A DNA stretch of 32,000 bases from Coprobacillaceae bacterium (GTDB lineage: Bacteria > Bacillota_I > Bacilli_A > Erysipelotrichales > Coprobacillaceae): NCBI GenBank assembly GCA_963675515.1, contig OY776328.1, positions 630,001-662,000 on the forward strand, read 5' to 3'. The position numbers and the translations under genes are program-made. This document shows positions 5,144 to 17,243 of the stretch, one piece after another. The notes under the pieces are model-generated. The model saw only the letters and a list, made by a program, of their open reading frames with translations, had not been told where the DNA came from and did no database searches. The stretch's first letter is position 1; every line of letters begins with the position of its first letter.

Positions 5144-5191
5144 AAAGTCATCTAGCAACATTATTAAATGAAGAAAACAGGAGAAAACAAA

Positions 5192-6039
5192 ATGGAAAAA
5201 TTTTTATTAAACGACAACAATATGATCCCGGCAATCGGATTCGGGGTGTTTCAGGTACCAAACGACGGACCAACTTACGAAGCGACATTGAAGGCTTTGA
5301 AAGCCGGTTACCGTCATATCGACACGGCTGCAGTGTATTTCAATGAAAGCGATGTGGGTAAGGCGGTAAAAGATAGCGGCATCGACAGAAGCGAGATTTT
5401 CATCACTTCGAAATTGTGGCCTCAGGATTACGGTTATGAAAATGCCAAAATCGGAATCAAGAATTCCTTGAATAATTTAGGTATGGATTATATCGACTTG
5501 TACCTGCTCCACCAACCATACGGTGATCTTAAAGGTGCCTGGAAGGCTTTGGAAGAGGCAAAGGATGCGGGAACCATCAAATCAATCGGGATCTCGAATC
5601 AGACTTTGAAATTCTTCAACGAGTTTGTGAAGGACATCCGCATCATGCCGGCGGTCAACCAGGTCGAATGCATCCTCTGTTCCAACAAAAGGAATTGCGC
5701 AAAGTCATGGATAAATACGGCATCCGGTTGGAAGCGTGGTATCCGTTTGGCCATGGCAACAAGGACTTGTTGGAAAATGCCTACCTGGTAAGCCTGTCTG
5801 AAAAATATAATAAAAACACCGGTCAGATAATCTTGAGATGGCATTTCCAGGAAGGTATCATCTCGCTACCTAAATCGACCAACGATGAAAGAATCAAGGG
5901 TAACATCGATATATTTGATTTTGAACTGAGTGATGAGGAAATGGAAAATATCCGGTCAATCGATACAGGAAAAGGGACCCATAACCCTGAAGATCCAAGC
6001 ATTGCTGAAAGGCTGAGTGGATTGAAGGTCCATGATTAA
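5192..6039 (+). pseudogene. Aldo/keto reductase with a -1 frameshift
   Basis: The N-terminal part is in frame 2 (MEKFLLNDNNMIPAIGFGVF...AVNQVE). The C-terminal part is in frame 1 (HPLFQQKELRKVMDKYGIRLEAWYPFG...). Only 2 nt (5669-5670) lie between codon GAA and CAT, so one base is missing. Confidence 0.85.
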
Positions 6040-6625: not shown

Positions 6626-7024
6626 ATGAAATCAAAAAAACATAAAATTAACTTGATTCATCTAGTGATATCGCTGATTGTATGTGCGTCTGTATTGGTC
6701 GGGTGTGATGTAGGTGAGTTTGAAGGTAACAACAACGATTTACAGGAGGACAATAGTATGAATGGTGATATTTCTGGAGTAGGCGATGAAGAAACTGGAT
6801 TGAATCGGCTTCCTCAGGTATTGGCTGAGATTCCAAATGAATACCGGCGACAATCGGACAGCCAAGGCGTTTTGCATGATCTTTATTATCAAACGTATGA
6901 ATCGATGAGCTATAAGCAAAAGCGAAGAATTTTGACAAAACATGCGGTTGTATATATCCCCTATGGATATTCACAAGAAGTCAAATATGATGTTTTCTAT
7001 TTGATGCATGGCGGCTGGAGCAAC
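6626..7024 (+). pseudogene. Lipoprotein esterase (PF00756-like alpha/beta hydrolase), N-terminal part, cut by the RIT element
   Basis: MKSKKHKINLIHLVISLIVCASVLVGC lipoprotein signal, then ...VVYIPYGYSQEVKYDVFYLMHGGWSN. The reading frame runs into the left TIR at 7024. Confidence 0.75.
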
Positions 7025-7112
7025 GATTATTCCGATAAAATAGTTATTCCGATATTTCTATCTATTGCCTGATTTTACTGCGTTAATTTTACAAAACATC
7101 GGAATAACTTAT
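7024..7112. repeat. RIT left terminal inverted repeat (89 bp)
   Basis: Exact reverse complement of 10412-10500, checked base by base. Contains TTATTCCGAT at 7027-7036 and 7044-7053, and the inverted copy at 7098-7107. Confidence 0.95.
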
Positions 7113-7179
7113 AGTCATAAATAGTTTTTTGTCTTATTCTAAAACTGTAGAATTAACAGTTTTAGAAAGGAGACTACTA

Positions 7180-8418
7180 ATGAAAAAACGTTGTTTAAAC
7201 GACGGTATCGATGCTGTAATGAGGTACCACATTGATAACCGCAATAATGAGACTATGTTTAAATACCAGAAAGCCTGTGACACTATAAGGGATATTTATT
7301 GTGAGCACAAGACGGAGTTCTATGATGAAGAATTGACTGAAAAAACGCTAATCGCAATTAAAGACCGATTGAAAGGATTCGCTAATCCAAATTTTACTTC
7401 AGAAAGATATCTTTTCCGCACTCTTTGCATGTTGCGTGATTATTTTAATGATAGACCATTTAAAGATAGCTACCCTTTAGTGAGCCGATATAAACATTCT
7501 TTGGACCCTTTCTTTGAGAAATGGGCTATTGATTTCAAGAATTCATTGAATAAAAAACCACTGACAATTCCAAATATATATTCCATAGCAAGAGATTTTT
7601 TCCATTATCTCCAGTTACAGGATATGAAGGATTTCTATTGTATCTCTCAAGACACCATTTATGCTTTTCTACAGTATGAATACTCCGATCATCAGGGTTC
7701 TATGGGAAACATAATGTATGTCATGCGGCTCTTGTGTGATTTTCTTCGACACAAAGGATTCATAAATATTCCTTCGGAACTGATTCCTTTTGCACTTCCA
7801 CCATCACGAAAGAAGGTGTTGCCATCATTTGATAACTCTGACATGGAAAGAATACTAAATACACCGGATAGGTCTGATGCTGGCGGGAAACGGGACTATG
7901 CAATTCTTATGTTAGCCTCTTTTACAGGGCTTCGGGCTGTTGACATTGCAAATATCAAGCTTAGTGATATAGACTGGGTTAAACTTACGATTCATTTACT
8001 ACAACATAAAACGGGCTATGGCTTGGCTCTGCCATTGGATGCTGAAGCAGCTGCCGCTATTGCAGAATATATATTATGTGGACGCCCAGATACCGAGCTC
8101 CCATATGTATTTCTAACAGAAGTTAGGCCATACAGAAAGCTAAGCAATAAATCTAGTGTCGCAAATATAATTAATAAGTACATAAAATTAGCTGGTATTG
8201 ACAAGTCGGCCCATGATGGAAAATCTTTTCACGCTTTTCGTCGAAGTATGGGAGTATGGCTGTTAAATACAAATGCTGACCCGGAGATGATATCACAGGT
8301 ACTGGGACATTATAGTAGCGACGCTCTAAAGCGTTACCTTCCATTGGATGTTTCATCTCTACGCATTTGTGCTATTGGATTTGAAAAAATTCCGGTTATA
8401 TCCGAGGTGTACCTATGA
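7180..8418 (+). CDS. ritA: Tyrosine recombinase, first of trio (RitA position)
   Basis: AAAGGAG RBS before the ATG at 7180. C-terminal FHAFRRSMGVWLL...VLGHYSSDALKRYLPL (HxxR...H...Y). About 412 aa. Confidence 0.85.
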   Translation: MKKRCLNDGIDAVMRYHIDNRNNETMFKYQKACDTIRDIYCEHKTEFYDEELTEKTLIAIKDRLKGFANPNFTSERYLFRTLCMLRDYFNDRPFKDSYPLVSRYKHSLDPFFEKWAIDFKNSLNKKPLTIPNIYSIARDFFHYLQLQDMKDFYCISQDTIYAFLQYEYSDHQGSMGNIMYVMRLLCDFLRHKGFINIPSELIPFALPPSRKKVLPSFDNSDMERILNTPDRSDAGGKRDYAILMLASFTGLRAVDIANIKLSDIDWVKLTIHLLQHKTGYGLALPLDAEAAAAIAEYILCGRPDTELPYVFLTEVRPYRKLSNKSSVANIINKYIKLAGIDKSAHDGKSFHAFRRSMGVWLLNTNADPEMISQVLGHYSSDALKRYLPLDVSSLRICAIGFEKIPVISEVYL

Positions 8419-9374
8419 AATATACGTTTAATAGTGTGTTTGCTTCGGATATTGTGGCATATGTAAAGCTACGCAGTTCACTCGGTAATGAAGAAGATAC
8501 TTATGCCAGAAGATTACAAGATTTTGACCACTTTTGCTTCGAAAAATATCCAGATGAAGAAAACCTGACCCAAGAATTGGCAGAGGACTGGTGTACATTA
8601 AGATCTAATGAAAAAACAAGTACCTTGCAGTTGCGGTCAGGAATTCTCAAGGACTTTGCAAGATATCTTGTAACACTTGGGAAAACGGCATATGTTATTC
8701 CAGAAGGATTTGCTGGAAAGAGAAGTCCTTTTATTCCATATCTTTATACTGAGGATGAATTGAAAATATTTTTTGAGAGTGCAGATACGCTTCCGCCACA
8801 CAAACTTTCTCCATTTCGAGAGTATGTGATACCTGTTATCTTTAGAATGCTTTACTGCTGTGGTCTTAGACCACAAGAAGTTCGTCATCTCACTGTTGAA
8901 CAGGTTGATCTTAATGAAGGAATTCTATATATTTGTGATTCGAAGAGAAATAAAGACCGTCAAGTTGCTATGTCTGATGATTTGACATACTTATGTACCC
9001 GTTATGAAAAGGTTATAAGCGAAAATATTCATTTGAGGAGGTATTTCTTTGAAAATCCTAATGGCGGTGAATACTCGGCCGCATGGATACAGCATCAGTT
9101 CTTTAAATGCTGGAAGCATGCTGGCATAACTTTTGACAAATCTCATCGTCCCCGAGTATGCGATTTTCGCCATAATTTCGCCACTCACAAGATAATTCAG
9201 TGGATGAATGACGGGCTTGATATAATGAACCTACTTCCATATTTAAGTACATATATGGGGCACGAATCCATAGAATACACTGCCTATTATATTCACCTAG
9301 TACCGGCTCATTTGAAATCTTCAGAATTGATTAACTGGAACTGTAATGTAGAGGTGCCTACCTATGAAGATTAA
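8415..9374 (+). CDS. ritB: Tyrosine recombinase, second of trio (RitB position)
   Basis: ATGA overlap with the ritA stop. 319 aa. LRPQEVRHL, DFRHNFATH and YMGHESIEYTAYYIHL motifs. Confidence 0.85.
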   Translation: MKYTFNSVFASDIVAYVKLRSSLGNEEDTYARRLQDFDHFCFEKYPDEENLTQELAEDWCTLRSNEKTSTLQLRSGILKDFARYLVTLGKTAYVIPEGFAGKRSPFIPYLYTEDELKIFFESADTLPPHKLSPFREYVIPVIFRMLYCCGLRPQEVRHLTVEQVDLNEGILYICDSKRNKDRQVAMSDDLTYLCTRYEKVISENIHLRRYFFENPNGGEYSAAWIQHQFFKCWKHAGITFDKSHRPRVCDFRHNFATHKIIQWMNDGLDIMNLLPYLSTYMGHESIEYTAYYIHLVPAHLKSSELINWNCNVEVPTYED

Positions 9375-10404
9375 GGATAAACGGCTCTTCGAGTTAATTA
9401 AAGAATATTTAACCATTTATCTGCCACTGCAAAAGAATGTCAGTAGTAATACCAGTAAATCGTATCGACAAGTATTAAACCAATTTATGGATTTTCTTTG
9501 CCAATACCAAAGCAAGTCATTGAAAGACATAGGCTTTGACGATTTTTCAGGTGACAATGTCAATTCATTTTTGCAGTGGCTTGAAGATACTCATAATTGT
9601 GGATTTTCTACAATTAATCATCATCTTTCAGTTATTCGTGTATTTTTAAAATATGCAGGTATGAAGGACCATGTATATAATGATTATTATCTTTCGGCCT
9701 GCAAAGTTGCAAGACGCAAAACAGAGAAACGACTTACTGTTGATCATTTCAGCGAAGCTTCGCTTGCTGCGATATTACAAGAGCCGGATGCAAAAACCAG
9801 AATCGGTCATCGCGATCTGTTTTTCATGATCCTACTTTACGATACTGCAGCCAGAGATAGAGAAATTTTGGATTTGCATACTCAGGATGTCATAACAAAT
9901 GTATCTGTTCATTATATAATAATCCATGGTAAAGGTGACAAAATAAGAACCGTTCCCATTATGGATGAAACGGTTTTACATTTCAAAAGCTACATGAGAA
10001 GATTTCATCCAGAACCAAAAGATAAAAGTTTTCTTTTTTATACAGTAATCCATGGTGAAAAGCATCCCATGTCAGATGATAATGTTGAAAGATTCGTCAA
10101 AAAGTATGCTACGTTAGCTCAAAAAAAGTGTCAGGAGGTTCCTAACCGAGTAACCCCGCATATGTTCAGGCATAGTCGGGCACTTCACTTGTATCGGAAA
10201 GGCGTACCGCTCCCACTTATATCAGAATGGCTTGGACATTCCAATGTTGAAACAACATTAATTTATGCTTACGCCGATACTGAGATGAAAAGAATAGCTA
10301 TAGAGAAAGCAACTGACAAGAATCATCCTATTCGTAACACAAAACGCTTTAATATATCAGAACTTGATGATGATACAATCAAGAAGCTCTATGGACTGAA
10401 ATAA
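9364..10404 (+). CDS. ritC: Tyrosine recombinase, third of trio (RitC position)
   Basis: Overlaps the ritB end by 11 nt. 346 aa. ARDREILDL, HMFRHSRALHL and WLGHSNVETTLIYAYA motifs. Confidence 0.85.
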   Translation: MKIKDKRLFELIKEYLTIYLPLQKNVSSNTSKSYRQVLNQFMDFLCQYQSKSLKDIGFDDFSGDNVNSFLQWLEDTHNCGFSTINHHLSVIRVFLKYAGMKDHVYNDYYLSACKVARRKTEKRLTVDHFSEASLAAILQEPDAKTRIGHRDLFFMILLYDTAARDREILDLHTQDVITNVSVHYIIIHGKGDKIRTVPIMDETVLHFKSYMRRFHPEPKDKSFLFYTVIHGEKHPMSDDNVERFVKKYATLAQKKCQEVPNRVTPHMFRHSRALHLYRKGVPLPLISEWLGHSNVETTLIYAYADTEMKRIAIEKATDKNHPIRNTKRFNISELDDDTIKKLYGLK

Positions 10405-10411
10405 TTTACCC

Positions 10412-10500
10412 ATAAGTTATTCCGATGTTTTGTAAAATTAACGCAGTAAAATCAGGCAATAGATAGAAATATCGGAATAACTATTTTATCGGAATAATCG
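10412..10500. repeat. RIT right terminal inverted repeat (89 bp)
   Basis: Exact reverse complement of 7024-7112. Confidence 0.95.
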
Positions 10501-10528
10501 GTATTATCCCGATGTCGGGATAATACCG
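10499..10528. other. Perfect 12-6-12 palindrome abutting the right TIR (candidate recombinase core or target site)
   Basis: CGGTATTATCCC GATGTC GGGATAATACCG. The arms contain a 9/10 match to the TIR 10-mer TTATTCCGAT. Confidence 0.5.
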
Positions 10529-11184
10529 AGACAACTTACCTGGGAACTCCGGATAATCCAAGTGAATTCAAGAATATCCTGGACAATGCGATATCCCAAG
10601 GAAAAATCAAACCGATGATCATCGTTTGCCCGACCTACAACAACACAAGTCCATCGGACAGTGGCGACTATAATCTGGCAATCGAGCTAACAAGAAATTA
10701 CCATAATGAATTGGTCAATGATTTGATTCCGGCAGTTGAAGGTGAATACAGTCCCTATGCAGGTGCAACCACAACCGAAGATTTGAAGGCATCCAGGGAC
10801 CACCGGGCTTTTTGTGGCTTTTCAATGGGTTCGGTGGCGACTTGGCGAACGTTTGAGAACTGTCTCGATTACTTCAGATATTTCTTCCCGTCATCCGGCA
10901 GTTCGACTGCAAACGGCGGATATCTGGCTTCAGTCGTAACGGAATCCGGGCATGACTGGGATGATTTTTTCATTTTTGCCGCATCAGGTACCGCAGATTT
11001 TGCCTACGCTTCATTCAAGCGGCAAATTGAATCGATGGCGGCGCAAAGTGATGGAGTTTTCCGCTATGGCGACAACGAAGCAAAGGCCAATCTCTGGTTT
11101 CTGGAAAAAGAAGGCGGAACTCATGGCCGATCGGATGCGCTGCTGTATTTTTACAACGCCTTATGCTGGATATGGACTGAATGA
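10501..11184 (+). pseudogene. Lipoprotein esterase, C-terminal part
   Basis: Frame 1 is open from 10498. ...TTYLGTPDNPSEFKNILDNAISQGKIKPMIIVCPTYNN...FCGFSMGSVATW (GxSxG nucleophile elbow). In frame with 6626-7024 once the RIT element is removed. Confidence 0.75.
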
Positions 11185-11676: not shown

Positions 11677-12753
11677 ATGAACAATAAGACCTTGAAAACA
11701 AACTTATTCAGGTCGATATTGGTGTTGCAAATAATTGCGGCATTATGTGGATGTGCGAATCAAGACCAAAGGGCAAATGGCGATAATTTGATTCCGGACC
11801 CGAATGGAGAATCGCAAATAGACGCAAATTATGTGACTGGAGAATCAGGAGGCGATGATATGAAGTTTGAACTTTTTACTGAAAATTCAACTGTTGCACA
11901 AGTTATCAATGAACCGGAATTTGAAGATTTTGGAAGGTTGATTTTTCCGGTCGATCTGAATATATCAGGCTCGATGACGCTCAAGCAGGTTTCCGGTAGC
12001 AGTGTTTATATGTGGTATTCGAACATCAAGTCTGAAAAGACTGTCGAGATTATAAATTATCTCAAAAATGAACGGATGAAGGGTAATAAGATATTCTACA
12101 ATATCTACTCGGATCAGCAGATTGCAAAGGATCCATCCAAAAGGGATACCGGGCTGTTTTTCTTTCGAGGTGAGCCTGGCAAGGAATTCGCGATAAATAA
12201 TGCGGGTGGGGGATTTTATTATGTGGGTGCCATGCATGACAGTTTTCCCCATGCGCTTGAAATATGCAAGAACAGTTATAATGCTTTTGCTTTGATTTAC
12301 CGGCCCGGCCAGGCTTATGAAGACCTTGGCCAAGCAATCAGTTTTATCTATGACCATGCCGAAGAACTCCAGGTAAGTCGGGATAACTATTCGCTTTGGG
12401 GCGGGTCAGCCGGAGCCCGGATGGCGGCTGTCTTAGGGAATTCAAGTTACCTAAAACAGTATACGCGCCGAAACGACATTCCTCAAAGCGGCGCTGTGGT
12501 AATGCAGTACACCGGTTACAGCCGGGTTTCAAGCGGTGATGCGCCGACCTATTCATGTGTCGGGACAAGGGATGGAATTGCCAGTTGGAAAACTATGCAA
12601 AATCGCCTGGAGCGGCTCGAATCGCTGGGAATCCCCACTGAGTTTCAAGTCTACAATGGATTGAGTCATGGATTCGGTCTGGGGACCGGAACGGTGGCCG
12701 ATGGCTGGATAAATGATGCCATCGCGTTCTGGAAGAAGCAAATTGAGAATTAG
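11677..12753 (+). CDS. Secreted/lipoprotein alpha/beta hydrolase (esterase/lipase)
   Basis: Signal peptide ...LQIIAALCGCANQ. LWGGSAGARMAA (GxSxG). C-terminal ...SHGFGLG. The start could instead be the TTG at 11662. Confidence 0.75.
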   Translation: MNNKTLKTNLFRSILVLQIIAALCGCANQDQRANGDNLIPDPNGESQIDANYVTGESGGDDMKFELFTENSTVAQVINEPEFEDFGRLIFPVDLNISGSMTLKQVSGSSVYMWYSNIKSEKTVEIINYLKNERMKGNKIFYNIYSDQQIAKDPSKRDTGLFFFRGEPGKEFAINNAGGGFYYVGAMHDSFPHALEICKNSYNAFALIYRPGQAYEDLGQAISFIYDHAEELQVSRDNYSLWGGSAGARMAAVLGNSSYLKQYTRRNDIPQSGAVVMQYTGYSRVSSGDAPTYSCVGTRDGIASWKTMQNRLERLESLGIPTEFQVYNGLSHGFGLGTGTVADGWINDAIAFWKKQIEN

Positions 12754-12783
12754 AGTTGTTGTTCAAAATAAGATTTCATCCGA

Positions 12784-13415: not shown

Positions 13416-13578
13416 TATATTGTAAATCAATATGTTAAAAAATACAAGGAGCTAACTATATTTAAATCAAGTGTTTTTTGATAATTAGCTGAATTTATTG
13501 TTAGATTTTTGAAAAGTGAATTTGTGTACACTGAAAACAACCACACAGTGGCCTTGGAATTTATTTTACAGTTGTAAA

Positions 13579-14748
13579 TTATTTGAGTTCCGATTCGTCA
13601 AACGTGATGTTTTCAGATAACAGTTTATAAATTACTCTTATTAGTTTTCTAATCGAATGTCCTTGAGCGCAGCGATGTGATTTACCTTGAGAACGTTTTA
13701 GGTTATAATAACTATTGAAAGTGGAGTTGTGGGTGCATACTGGAAGAATGCATTGGTAAAGTGTCTTTCTCAAATAACGTGAACCACGTTTTGACAAAGC
13801 AGTTTGTGGGGCGTTGTATTCTCCGGATTGATATGTTCCAGGATCAACACCTGCAAAACCGATAACTTTAGCTGGGGAGCTAAAATTGTCGAGATCCCCA
13901 ATTTCACTTAATATTGACATTCCTGAGTATATACCAATGCCAGGGATAGTAAAGATAGGAGAATTTAGTGCGATGGCTAGTTCTTCTATTTTTTTATCCA
14001 CTATTTCCAAGTGCTGCTCAGATAAATCAAGGGATTCAATAAGCATTTTGATTTCCATGGTAATTATTTCGTTGTTCTCGCCGATTGATTGTTTAGCTGC
14101 TTCGCGAATTGCCAAGGCATCAACCTTCACAGTTCTACCTTTTCCTTGTTGCCGCAAGACATTTTTAAGATGAGCAAGATTGGCATTGGCTAGATTGTAT
14201 GAGTTCCCAAACTCTCTTAAAATAGCCATGTAAGCCCGAGAATACTTGGTTTTGAACCAACTGTTTATTTCAGGAATTACGGTATCAATGCACTTTTGAA
14301 GTCTGTTTTTAAGCTGGTTGATATCTTCAGTAAGTGTTGCGTGATACCGGGTAAGTTCTTTGGCTTGTTTCAATGCCAACTTGCGTTTTGTAACCTTGGT
14401 GTAGTTCTTGTCGAACAGCACAGAGCAGATCAGGAAAGTATCTTTCTTATCGTTTTTGGTCTTCCTGATTTTTCCACGACGCTTGGCATCAGTTGTCAAA
14501 GGATTTATCATCCCGACTTCGTAGCTGTTTGATACTAGAAAATTCACGATATTGTCACCGTAGTGACCTGTCGCCTCTAGTCCGACAATATGCCTTGAAG
14601 AATTGAATTTTCTTGTGTTTTTAAGAAATAAGTCAAATCCATTACGGCTATTGGTGAAGAAAAAAGGTTCGACCAACACTTCGCCATTTGAGTCAACAAC
14701 GCAGGCACAGTGTTTGAATTTACCTACGTCAATACCGATGTAATACAT
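13579..14748 (-). CDS. IS110-family transposase/recombinase
   Basis: 389 aa from MYYIGIDVGKFKHCACVVD (RuvC-like DEDD N-domain) to the C-terminal ...SKRGSRYLRKTLYQC...RCAQGHSIRKLIRVIY domain. AAAGGA RBS. The upstream extension in the track (to 14832) precedes the RBS. Confidence 0.9.
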   Translation of the reverse strand: MYYIGIDVGKFKHCACVVDSNGEVLVEPFFFTNSRNGFDLFLKNTRKFNSSRHIVGLEATGHYGDNIVNFLVSNSYEVGMINPLTTDAKRRGKIRKTKNDKKDTFLICSVLFDKNYTKVTKRKLALKQAKELTRYHATLTEDINQLKNRLQKCIDTVIPEINSWFKTKYSRAYMAILREFGNSYNLANANLAHLKNVLRQQGKGRTVKVDALAIREAAKQSIGENNEIITMEIKMLIESLDLSEQHLEIVDKKIEELAIALNSPIFTIPGIGIYSGMSILSEIGDLDNFSSPAKVIGFAGVDPGTYQSGEYNAPQTALSKRGSRYLRKTLYQCILPVCTHNSTFNSYYNLKRSQGKSHRCAQGHSIRKLIRVIYKLLSENITFDESELK

Positions 14749-14964
14749 GATAACACGTCCTTTCGTAATAGGTGAGATGTGATATATCCACATACAAGGT
14801 ATCAAAGATCCTGGTGCAAAATACAAGTTCAAAGACTTATCTAACTAATTTCAATTCAGATACGAAGATGTGGCAATTTCCTCCTCGAGGTAGTCAAGCT
14901 ACAGGAATAAAACATCAAAGTACACATTCACAATTCAATTCTATAACAAAAATAAAAGAAAGGA

Positions 14965-14972
14965 AAATGTAT
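14965..14972. repeat. IS256 target-site duplication, left copy (AAATGTAT)
   Basis: Identical 8-mer at 16340-16347, directly flanking the inverted repeats. Confidence 0.85.
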
Positions 14973-16339
14973 GATAGTGTAAAATATTTTGTGTAAATAG
15001 GATTTCAACTTTTAAGTAGAAAAAAGGGTGCAACCCTTGTAAAATTAGTTCGACGAAAACAATTTACGAGAGGATTACACCCATGAACTATTTTACAACA
15101 ACTTTACTTAGAAGTCTAATATCAAATGATAATAATCTGCCAGCTTTTGAGCAAGTAGTCTCAGAACTTTTCCGGAGCGAATTGGAGAATGCCATCAACG
15201 ATATTTTGAAGTCCGAACTTACCGTTTTTCTTGATTATGAGAAATATGACCGATCTGAGAATTCGAATTCAAGAAATGGCTATTACAACCGCGATTACAA
15301 CACTAAATATGGTGTGTTGAACCTGCGCATACCACGTGACCGTCAAGGGGACTTTGATTCACCGCTGGTCCCTAAATATCAGCGAAACGATCTAGCTACC
15401 ACCAACACTGTCATCGATCTATTTAATTCAGGGATGACCAACAGCGACATTGTAAAAACTGTTGAATCAATCTACGGCAAGAAATACTCCAGATAGACAG
15501 TTTCCAATATTACTAAGGAAATAGTTGCCCATGTTGAAGCCTTTAAAAATCGCCCGTTAAACAAGCAATACGCAGTTGTTTATACCGACGCTACAGTTAT
15601 TCCTTTGCGGCGCGATACCGTGTCTAAAGAGGCGGTTCATATCGCTATAGGAGTGACTCTAGAGGGAACAAAGGAAATACTAGGATATTCAATTGCGCCA
15701 ACCGAATCCGCAACAACATGGCGGGAACTGTTTGAAGAGTTCAAAACACGCGGTTTGGAAGCGGTTGCGTTATTCTGTACTGACGGGCTAACCGGTGTTG
15801 AGAACGCCATTGAAGACACTTTTCCGATGGCCAAAATCCAACGTTGCCTGGTGCATGTTTCAAGAAACATTACAGCCAAAGCAAGAGTGAAAGACCGTAG
15901 TGAGATTGCACAGGATTTTAAGCGAGTTTACAATTGCGAAACTGAAAAAGCGGCGAGTGAAGAGCTTAAGGAGTTCATCACCAAATGGGGGCAAAAATAC
16001 CCAAAAGTGGCAAAATCACTTGAAGAGAATTCAAATCTATTCACTTTCTATTTGTTCCCTGAATCGGTACGCAAGAGCATATATACAACAAACCTGATCG
16101 AAGGTTTCAATAAACAGCTCAAGCGGAAAATCAAGGCTAAAGAACAATTCCCAAATGAGGAAGCTGTGGAGAAATACATCGTTTCGCAATTTGAACAATA
16201 TAACCAAAAATTCATGAACCATACCCATAAGGGATTCAAAGGAATATCTTACGAACGTTGGTTCCTGCTAGAAGAAGAATAACCAAGATGATCAGTAAGA
16301 ACTAATTTTACAAATTTACACAAAAATATTGACACTACC
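14973..16339 (+). mobile_element. IS256-family insertion sequence, 1367 bp
   Basis: IRL GATAGTGTAAAATATTTTGTGTAAAT (14973-14998) against the reverse complement of IRR (16314-16339), GGTAGTGTCAATATTTTTGTGTAAAT, gives 21/26 matches. 8-bp direct repeats flank the element, and it carries an IS256-type transposase. Confidence 0.9.
15083..16282 (+). pseudogene. IS256-family transposase interrupted by an in-frame TAG
   Basis: ORFs 15083-15496 and 15605-16282 are in the same frame. ...SIYGKKYSR*TVSNITKEIVAHVEAFKNRPL... reads through a single TAG at 15494-15496. Confidence 0.85.
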
Positions 16340-16347
16340 AAATGTAT
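16340..16347. repeat. IS256 target-site duplication, right copy (AAATGTAT)
   Basis: Identical to 14965-14972. Confidence 0.85.
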
Positions 16348-16370
16348 ATCATAAATTGACTACTAGATAA

Positions 16371-17243
<873 letters not shown>

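Follow-up and report, generated by a model that had tools for sequence, protein, structure and literature searches.

A recombinase-in-trio element in a Coprobacillaceae esterase gene: base-defined ends, a 26-bp palindrome at one end and a candidate Xer-like mode of movement

Three overlapping tyrosine recombinase genes, bracketed by long inverted repeats, lie inside an esterase gene of a Coprobacillaceae bacterium (assembly GCA_963675515.1, contig OY776328.1, positions 630,001 to 662,000; this whole stretch of 32,000 nucleotides is hereafter the window, and coordinates refer to it unless another locus is named). The locus raises the questions of what exactly was inserted here, and how such an insertion is made. 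Trios of this kind are termed recombinase-in-trio (RIT) elements; according to a table in a 2023 review, none has ever been made to move in the laboratory, and mode of movement, target specificity and empty-site formation are all listed as untested (PMC10214605), in agreement with an earlier reading of the window from its letters alone (the original prediction), which regarded the mechanism as biochemically unestablished. Here the segment 7027-10529 is identified as an intact RIT element, and its structure is probably best explained overall by Xer-like, conservative site-specific excision and integration, with the esterase site as an off-target.

The original prediction had placed the three overlapping recombinase genes at 7180-8418, 8415-9374 and 9364-10404, and the products of all three, with 412, 319 and 346 residues, indeed match PF00589; RitC additionally matches N-terminal SAM-like domains in Pfam. 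The genes are co-directional, with overlaps of 4 nt between ritA and ritB and 11 nt between ritB and ritC, and the element carries between its ends these three genes and no cargo.

7180-8418, plus strand: ritA; two N-terminal four-helix bundles and the catalytic domain, with R252, K277, H351, R354, H377 and Y386
8415-9374, plus strand: ritB; R152, K177, C249 replacing His, R252, H283 and Y292
9364-10404, plus strand: ritC; R164, K190, H266, R269, H292 and Y301, and a C-terminal extension of about 30 residues

Alignment of the three proteins with XerD revealed that the Arg, the Lys, the second Arg, the second His and the Tyr are kept by RitA, RitB and RitC alike. The HxxR...Y signature that had been assigned to each protein holds in full for RitA (H351/R354) and RitC (H266/R269), whereas RitB has the Tyr but carries Cys249 at the position of the first His (C-D-F-R252). 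The HRPR stretch at residues 244-247 of RitB, a little further upstream, was considered as the catalytic box and rejected. This first-His position is variable in RitB elsewhere, being Tyr in Rhodococcus and His in Sinorhizobium and Sphingobium.

NCBIfam and Pfam assign the window proteins to generic Xer/integrase models only, and megablast of the whole element against plasmids gave no match. When plasmids were searched with RitA by tblastn, 348 records matched, chiefly those of the genera long known to host RITs, namely Rhizobium, Sinorhizobium, Sphingobium and Cupriavidus. At three of the loci, one each on pMSHV of Sphingobium herbicidovorans MH (the strain where ritABC elements got their name), pRWAY03 of Rhodococcus and pC of S. 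meliloti, the annotation shows a trio whose genes overlap by 4 bp; these hosts represent Alphaproteobacteria and Actinomycetota. The clade check suggested by the original prediction was made against these trios as a reciprocal-similarity test by all-against-all BLASTP, and the proteins match by position, with 84-247 bits for same-position pairs compared to at most 70 bits for cross-position pairs. Among themselves, RitA, RitB and RitC of the window share 20-24% identity.

The AlphaFold2 model of RitA (34-sequence alignment, mean pLDDT 78) has four-helix bundles at residues 6-89 and 110-191 before the catalytic domain. Its closest structural matches are XerA, XerD and XerH, and about 295 of the 412 residues align to Xer structures. 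The RitC tail extends for about 30 residues past the end of XerD and is common to the three other RitC proteins in the alignment. Two sequential core-binding (CB) domains are the hallmark of RitA and an extra conserved C-terminal helix is that of RitC, and Rit proteins are grouped as Xer-like "simple" tyrosine recombinases (PMC8138268). Altogether, the order and overlaps of the trio, the PF00589 matches, the position-specific similarity to known Rit proteins, the RitA bundles, the RitC extension and the catalytic residues make the assignment of 7027-10529 as an intact RIT element secure; gene order, gene sizes, short overlaps and terminal repeats all fit the class to which the original prediction had assigned it.

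The terminal repeats are perfect, as had been claimed: 7024-7112 is the exact reverse complement of 10412-10500 at 89 of 89 positions. Neither arm extends further, and the repeat-to-repeat length is 3,477 bp. Exact copies of the 10-mer TTATTCCGAT occur six times in the window, at precisely the previously listed positions, all of them within the two repeats, compared to about 0.06 expected by chance (2 x 32000 / 4^10).

7024-7112, plus strand: left terminal inverted repeat, 89 bp
7027-7036, plus strand: M1 (TTATTCCGAT), terminal motif, conserved in an alignment of 24 ends
7044-7053, plus strand: M2, direct copy, 17 nt start-to-start from M1
7098-7107, minus strand: M3, inverted copy, between the two hexamers of a promoter-like site
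10412-10500, minus strand: right terminal inverted repeat, 89 bp
10417-10426, plus strand: M3', inside the right repeat
10471-10480, minus strand: M2', inside the right repeat
10488-10497, minus strand: M1', inside the right repeat

The repeats do not mark both ends of the insert. That the element splits a lipoprotein esterase gene is well supported, as the rejoined protein of 351 residues has all invariant residues and its PF00756 match spans the junction. The rejoined esterase has more than 2,500 homologues in a homology search, the closest being 82% and 74% identical, and all ten aligned orthologues read ...YLMHGGWS(N/D)-ETTYLGTPD... without interruption. Compared to them, the join of 7024 to 10501 proposed in the original prediction is in frame but is not the native junction, for it leaves nine codons, VLSRCRDNT, as an insertion unique to the window; the alternative join of 7024 to 10531 fails as well, deleting the invariant Glu.

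6626-7023, plus strand: 5' esterase part, with a signal peptide and the sequence LVGC, which we take to be the lipobox; ends ...LMHGGWS(N)
10528-11184, plus strand: 3' esterase part; its first residue is the conserved Glu of ETTYLGTPD, and GFSMGS lies within it
7021-7026, plus strand: left junction spacer CAACGA, the last 3 nt of the target plus the repeat tip CGA; presumed 6-bp crossover region
10524-10529, plus strand: right junction spacer TACCGA, the outer 3 nt of the palindrome described below plus the target CGA

The empty site that the original prediction proposed to look for exists in a relative. L001 (handles of this form denote contigs and loci recovered by our searches), the contig encoding the 82% orthologue, is syntenic with the window at about 84% DNA identity and contains the uninterrupted site GGTTGGAGCAACGAGACAACTTACC, ...AGCAAC|GAGACA..., that is, GGWSN|ETTYLG, in the reading AGCAACGAGACA. 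In blastn it aligns to the window in two blocks, with borders at 7026 and 10527 and the 3 nt CGA in common, which places the native join at 7024|10528, with CGA ambiguous between 7024-7026 and 10527-10529. From the orthologue alignment and this empty site, the insert is 3,503 bp long, 7027-10529 or equivalently 7024-10526, with CGA at both junctions. The end placed at 10500 by the original prediction thus falls short by 26 bp (10501-10526, GTATTATCCCGATGTCGGGATAATAC), which belong to the insert. We infer that TACCGA at the right junction is an overlap carried from the previous site.

In intact relatives the two ends are alike over only about 30-50 nt, followed by unrelated spacers and then M3, and for this reason the 89/89 repeat of the window seems to reflect a recent copying of one end onto the other. 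Perfect repeats, on which the claim of a recent copy had partly rested, are hence not simply a sign of youth; a better case for a recent insertion is made by the esterase halves, which show no decay, and by the empty site of the relative.

The additional 26 bp, hereafter pal, form an inverted repeat of their own. Together with the flanking TCG and CGA, pal gives a perfect palindrome at 10498-10529 in a repeat finder, and its predicted hairpin has a dG of -15 kcal/mol (z -5.7). It contains two motif-like copies, which bring the right end to five, three of them in the repeat.

10501-10526, no strand: pal, GTATTATCCCGA TG TCGGGATAATAC, 26 bp; absent from the empty site
10504-10513: M4 TTATCCCGAT, motif-like copy in pal
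10515-10523: M5 TCGGGATAA, inverted motif-like copy in pal
10488-10513, plus strand: core-like site X, composed of M1' (ATCGGAATAA), the 6-nt spacer TCGGTA and M4 (TTATCCCGAT)

Facing motif pairs are always 6 bp apart. At the right end M5 is followed by TACCGA and then the target, at the left end CAACGA directly precedes M1, and the geometry of site X recurs at 13 genome ends and 38 metagenome ends. The junction 6-mers are identical in five complete elements (L008, L016, L023, L031 and L010; CATCGA in three, CGTCGA and AACGGA) and differ by 1-2 nt in four (L024, L005, L015 and the window), and thereby behave like an overlap region common to both recombination partners. Among near-identical copies, site X has different spacers (TCGATG, TCAACA, TCAATA, TCTATT), as would be the case if it kept a record of an earlier crossover. 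The tip triplet of the repeats is variable too (CGA, TGA, AGA or GGA; CAA, CTG, CCA and others in other lineages). A report of 2012 described a palindrome flanking ritC together with variable ends, and judged them not to fit known site layouts (PMC3414803); the location of the tip triplet inside the 6-bp spacer explains this variation.

This anatomy is shared across the family. RitA homologues are numerous at 40-74% identity, many of them on contigs as long as the element itself (3.4-3.55 kb), and L002 (RitA identity 56%) has the same gene sizes, the same repeat-to-repeat length of 3,477 bp and the same motif layout. A protein scan of the genome collection with RitA gave no matches, and a DNA pattern of the repeat tip, CGATTATTCCGAT-N7-TTATTCCGA, was scanned instead in one genome per species; it found 26 loci, in Bacillota, Actinomycetota, a deltaproteobacterial metagenome-assembled genome (MAG) and Caldisericota. 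L012 and L020-L022 were excluded as RIT ends, being a 17-nt tandem satellite (CGATTATTCCGATTATT) that contains the tip motif; these satellite contigs come from Verrucomicrobia and Prevotellaceae MAGs, where the likeness may be chance or a derived repeat.

Across the 24 aligned ends, conservation is confined to three blocks, M1 (cGATTATTCCGAT), M2 at 17 nt inward and the inverted M3, and the spacers are free. M3 was absent from the pattern that found the genome loci of this set, and elements found by protein similarity alone (L002, L031, L033-L041) have the same M1, M2 and M3 blocks. The spacings of M1-M2 and of the 6-bp pairs are fixed, whereas the M2-M3 distance varies between lineages. The RIT of Sinorhizobium follows the same plan with TTATGCCGA and that of Sphingobium with GACnGTAAT, both keeping the 17-nt spacing.

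Between repeat tip and flank, pal measures 26 nt without exception, and the spacers 6 nt, at 13 of 13 genome and plasmid ends, as well as in L033 and L034, in the form xxx-TTATyCCGA-(1-2 nt)-TCGGrATAA-xxx. In a metagenome scan, whose pattern fixed one 6-nt spacing and left the palindrome free, 38 of 38 further ends have a 26-nt palindrome. In total it is found at one end of 53 related elements from several phyla. Its core is specific to the lineage and inherited, as seen for the imperfect TTATTCTGAAATCGGAATAA in more than 10 loci. Deletion of the segment from repeat to pal plus one tip triplet restores complete YhcG or rve frames in L016, L024, L010 and L005.

The position of pal relative to the genes is not constant. 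It lies beside ritC in the window, L005, L007, L015, L024, L031 and L034, and beside ritA in L008, L016, L023, L032 and L033; among metagenome ends the counts are 14 beside ritA and 8 beside ritC, and overall 19 ends on the ritA side and 15 on the ritC side. Whichever way the genes run, the part of the target gene next to pal is always the 3' one. The segment 1894-5430 of L011 is 98% identical to L016 but lacks pal and has 5'-type target flanks on both sides, which is the product expected from inversion between two inverted copies.

Two more relatives deserve mention. A 368-bp gene-less miniature with both repeats and the palindrome lies at 4905-5298 of L010 (Bacillus sp. FJAT-29814), at W-V-T|D-I-T-Y of an IS3-type transposase gene; its ends resemble the RIT of Schinkia azotoformans (L015), its AACGGA spacers are identical, and it is possibly a non-autonomous RIT derivative. 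L002, of 3,503 bp with 13-nt reverse-complement ends, was considered as a circle with a 26-nt palindromic joint and rejected, because both ends carry the same flank, of the type found at the 5' esterase part, and no pal, so that the match in length is coincidental; its ends most probably arose in the de Bruijn graph, as an artefact of the inverted repeats. Likewise, the dozens of RitA homologues on contigs of 3.42-3.55 kb resemble assembly breakage or mis-joining at multi-copy inverted repeats.

Related elements occupy many independent sites among the genome and metagenome loci, and inspection of the flanks of RIT ends (L004-L079) revealed whole lineages at one fixed codon position of mobile-DNA-type genes. 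In the closer relatives of the window element the interrupted gene encodes an rve (DDE) transposase, and the break falls at its first catalytic Asp, between W-x-T and D-I-T-Y: L010 and L005, once rejoined, have full rve domains across the junction, in Desulfitibacter alkalitolerans an HTH_21 gene, the trio and an rve gene follow in that order, and L036-L041 have an HTH_21 gene immediately upstream. For another lineage, with members in Bacillota, Actinomycetota and a deltaproteobacterium, the split genes are those of YhcG/DUF1016 PD-(D/E)xK nucleases, at D-F-F/Y-I|D-L; further lineages lie next to a DDE_Tnp_1 gene or to IS91-type Y2_Tnp genes, in the latter case at W-G-Q-N-L-x-F-H-P-H-V-H. We found no description of this fixed-codon pattern in the RIT literature consulted, Ricker et al. 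2013 lying outside that scope. Insertion at fixed codons of transposase and nuclease genes would make RITs parasites of other mobile elements.

Off-target insertions occur as well, in an AraC-type regulator gene (L076) and a PLD-like gene (L057), and the esterase site of the window (G-W-S-N|E-T-T-Y-L; TGG...CGA...AC.TA) looks like such an event. The spacer TACCGA fits the codons xxT-ACC-GAy of the canonical W-x-T-D target, which suggests, by analogy with what is reported for Tn554 and SE elements, that this overlap was carried from a donor site.

Taken together, these features point to Xer-like recombination as the most likely mode of movement. The reading unit would be the 9-10-mer TTATyCCGA, and facing copies 6 bp apart would form the arms and central region of a dif-like site; the dif site of E. 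coli has ATAA-N6-TTAT, facing arms around a 6-bp centre. One core site (X) would consist, while the element is integrated, of the motif at the right tip and the inner of the two pal motifs. If the two junctions recombined, the esterase gene would be whole again. Excision would join pal to the left tip, with the expected junction ...GGGATAATAC-CGA-TTATTCCGATAAAATAG..., and thus create a second core site, Y (M5-6 bp-M1), beside X. Integration would run this reaction backwards, at a target 6-mer that ends with NGA.

The excised repeat-pal-repeat junction would be a near-perfect palindrome, in which X and Y are mirror images, and this would explain how the genes can stand in either orientation while pal keeps to the same side of the target; the orientation pattern would then reflect the use of either site, or later inversion. 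The 6-bp overlap could be inherited from either partner, with TACCGA as a memory of the donor site, and M2 and M3 would probably serve as accessory sites. With some 50 related ends, the vague remark of 2012 thereby becomes a concrete model of facing 9-10-bp motifs 6 bp apart and a travelling palindrome.

Several observations weigh against this explanation. It assigns no necessary role to three different recombinases, and all motifs follow one consensus. A domain-by-domain comparison of identity between same-target and different-target elements is silent on the reader of motif or target; the first RitA domain (residues 1-100, window 7180-7479) is simply the fastest-evolving part of the trio, at 32% compared to 57-70% for the other domains of the same element pair. 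The two overlaps of the window, CAACGA and TACCGA, differ at 2 of 6 positions, and strict Xer or Cre-type systems poorly tolerate overlap mismatches. A weight matrix of rve-lineage flanks ranks the esterase site 1,175th of 56,932 positions (z = 2.1), within the top 2% of the emptied window, which is weak statistical support for the idea of a target mimic. Ricker et al. 2013 may already describe parts of the anatomy or of the target bias, or contradict them. In a mobilome study, exonuclease-resistant DNA was enriched for RITs, but reads across a circle junction were not seen (PMC5737581).

Neither an excised circle nor a tandem nor a repeat-pal-repeat junction was found in any contig searched, which we regard as neutral, since assemblers would probably fail on a palindrome of about 204 bp and short reads cannot separate repeat-pal-repeat from chromosomal repeat-pal. 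The pattern M5-N6-M1-N7-M2 was considered as circle-specific and rejected, being equal to site X read on the other strand; its 38 metagenome matches are ordinary pal-side ends, with no repeat-pal-repeat among them, and in viral contigs it has no match. Outward-facing polymerase chain reaction and short-read searches for circles, the former suggested by the original prediction, would be blinded by the same palindromic junction.

A bolder extension of Xer-like movement, possible but doubtful in our estimation, is that RITs are self-contained "hunters" of mobile elements, with back-to-back mirror cores, lineage-tuned target codons and divided recombinase labour. Accordingly, the 26-bp palindrome may set two mirror dif-like cores on the excised form and thereby permit entry in either orientation, and each lineage may be tuned to the codons of a catalytic motif (rve W-x-T|D-I-T-Y, YhcG D-F-F-I|D-L, IS91 W-G-Q...H-P-H-V-H, or DDE_Tnp_1). 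One recombinase may read the single motif, while the other two may read the unlike halves of the target. In a stronger version, pal may even extrude into a structure that already mimics a Holliday junction and serves the trio as its assembly platform.

Such extrusion is at the heart of a rival explanation, which we consider unlikely. Here pal, alone or with the repeats, would extrude as a hairpin or cruciform that the recombinases treat as a Holliday junction, or in the manner of a telomere resolvase, and the product would be a linear element with covalently closed hairpin ends, not a circle. Besides the strong fold of pal, the sequence would place a motif exactly 3 nt, half of the 6-bp overlap, from the branch point on three of the four cruciform arms, which is the arm geometry of a recombinase-bound Holliday junction. 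The authors of the mobilome study themselves proposed hairpin intermediates for the exonuclease-resistant RIT DNA that lacked circle junctions (PMC5737581), but missing junction reads are weak evidence, short reads being unable to tell a circle junction from repeat-pal. Moreover, each integrated copy has one pal, at one end, and a two-hairpin molecule would not obviously give such a product. The imperfect pal of L007 and L016 (TTATTCTGA versus TTATTCCGA) is inherited unchanged, which argues against a symmetric fold-back that regenerates pal at each move.

It is likewise improbable that the element follows the copy-out or strand-biased route suggested for SE elements and Tn554. Such a route would account for the three non-esterase nucleotides (TAC) at the right junction, which fit the usual target codons of the lineage, since SE elements and Tn554 reportedly move 6 bp from the left flank of the donor to the new right side (PMC10214605), and the many homologues on contigs of about 3.4-3.55 kb are what multi-copy repeats would give. 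Nevertheless, RITs lack the fourth protein that those systems need (Tfp/GinC, Srap/GinD or TnpC; PMC10214605), and conservative recombination with heteroduplex overlaps, in the style of Tn916, explains the same 6-bp carry-over.

The idea that each of the three end copies docks one of the three enzymes has very little in its favour. It draws on the three motif copies per 89-bp repeat and the three genes, a numerical match to which the original prediction had pointed, but the match is lost once pal is counted, the right end then having five copies of a single consensus. The copies in the repeats are the same 10-mer, whereas the proteins are only 20-24% identical and differ in their N-terminal domains, and the M2-M3 distance varies between lineages while the M1-M2 and 6-bp pair spacings are fixed. 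One consensus for all copies points to one DNA-reading specificity and not to three.

Finally, it is highly improbable that the copy is immobile, either as a fixed relic or with a trio in another role such as inverting the inter-repeat segment: the window holds one copy, an exact-protein look-up (RitB, RitC and P0121, the 100%-identical RitA match) found no identical copy on other contigs, and inversion could cause the two gene orientations relative to pal seen in the family, but the three frames are full-length with intact catalytic residues, both ends and pal are intact, the esterase halves are undecayed with an empty site in a relative at 84% nucleotide identity, and the single-copy count covers the 32-kb window.

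Upstream of ritA, the left end carries two further features.

7088-7115, plus strand: promoter-like site bracketing M3, TTTACA, 16 nt, TATAGT; 10 of 12 consensus positions
7137-7167, plus strand: leader hairpin with perfect 12-bp arms and a 7-nt loop, ending immediately upstream of the AAGGAG ribosome-binding site

As the sole good match upstream of ritA, 7088-7115 is a candidate ritA promoter, although as a consensus match only, two promoter-like matches being seen compared to 2.0 expected in shuffles. Because M3 lies between the -35 and -10 hexamers of this candidate, it is possibly an autoregulatory site of ritA. The leader hairpin has a predicted dG of -11.9 kcal/mol (z -5.2), and Rfam found no known RNA families in the window. 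L002 has a hairpin-capable repeat of other sequence at the same place in its ritA leader.

Elsewhere, the window and L001 differ at several places. About 2.9 kb of the window (13451-16388) are absent from L001; within them lie genes for an IS110-family transposase (13579-14832, minus strand) and for one of the Mutator/IS256 family, the latter broken into two open reading frames (15083-15496 and 15605-16282). An aldo/keto reductase gene at 5168-6039 is present as two overlapping frames of 207 and 123 residues, compared to a single gene of 282 residues in L001, and would be a frameshift pseudogene or reflect a sequencing error. Conversely, an iron-containing alcohol dehydrogenase gene of L001 (5625-6785) has no counterpart at 12753-12774 of the window.

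The RIT class, the palindrome at one end and the variable ends were known before, and the element itself is a further member. The archetype, Rmet_1271-1273 of Cupriavidus metallidurans CH34 (reportedly described by Van Houdt in 2009 and 2012 and by Ricker in 2013), has the same ritA-ritB-ritC order of adjacent overlapping genes, the same size of about 3.5 kb and terminal inverted repeats. It too has a palindrome beside one end gene and "variable" ends (PMC3414803), but its repeat is quoted as 28-34 bp (PMC10214605, PMC3414803), compared to the perfect and unusually long 89 bp of the window. Unlike the archetype, the window element resides in a low-GC Bacillota-like genome, has a Cys at the first catalytic His of RitB, and allows ends, empty site and 6-bp junction spacers to be read exactly. 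With three intact genes, base-defined ends, a matched empty site and exact 6-bp spacers, it offers itself as an experimental substrate.

The trio is distinct from other multi-recombinase systems. The Gamma-mobile-trio (GmtX/Y/Z) is remote, as the NCBIfam GmtY and GmtZ models score 15-30 bits against cut-offs of 340-600, and a paper on a three-tyrosine-recombinase "Tyrovirus", considered for relevance, proved unrelated, dealing with dispersed phage genes. Tn554 resembles RITs in its multiple recombinases, lack of target duplication and site preference, and carries 6 bp from the donor flank to the new site, as proposed here (PMC10214605). However, it has TnpA, a long TnpB (about 630 residues), the non-recombinase TnpC and no terminal inverted repeats, whereas the three window proteins (412, 319 and 346 residues) are all recombinases that do not reach the Tn554-type models and are flanked by an 89-bp inverted repeat. 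SE/GInt elements likewise jointly need several tyrosine recombinases, are site-specific and use a 6-bp overlap. They have four conserved genes, including Tfp/GinC and Srap/GinD, plus cargo, are confined to Gamma- and Betaproteobacteria (PMC10214605) and are devoid of long terminal inverted repeats, whereas the window element has three genes between its ends and no cargo.

Some single-enzyme systems share particular steps. Tn916 and Tn1549 tolerate a non-identical 6-bp overlap and carry it from the old site to the new, as proposed here, but are large conjugative elements with a single integrase plus Xis and AT-rich targets. The telomere resolvases ResT, TelK and TelN, enzymes of tyrosine-recombinase type, have a palindrome as substrate and cut it at positions 6 bp apart on either side of the dyad; they yield hairpin telomeres, not insertions, and are relevant only to the rival hairpin model. 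The resemblance to XerC/XerD-dif and to IMEX, elements whose integration site is dif, lies in the Xer-like Rit proteins, with XerA, XerD and XerH as structural matches of RitA, and in the facing ...ATAA-N6-TTAT... motifs, which mirror the inner arms and 6-bp centre of dif. Unlike these systems, RITs encode their own three enzymes, carry their own sites, target genes of other mobile elements instead of the chromosome terminus, and set two core-like sites back to back across a palindrome.

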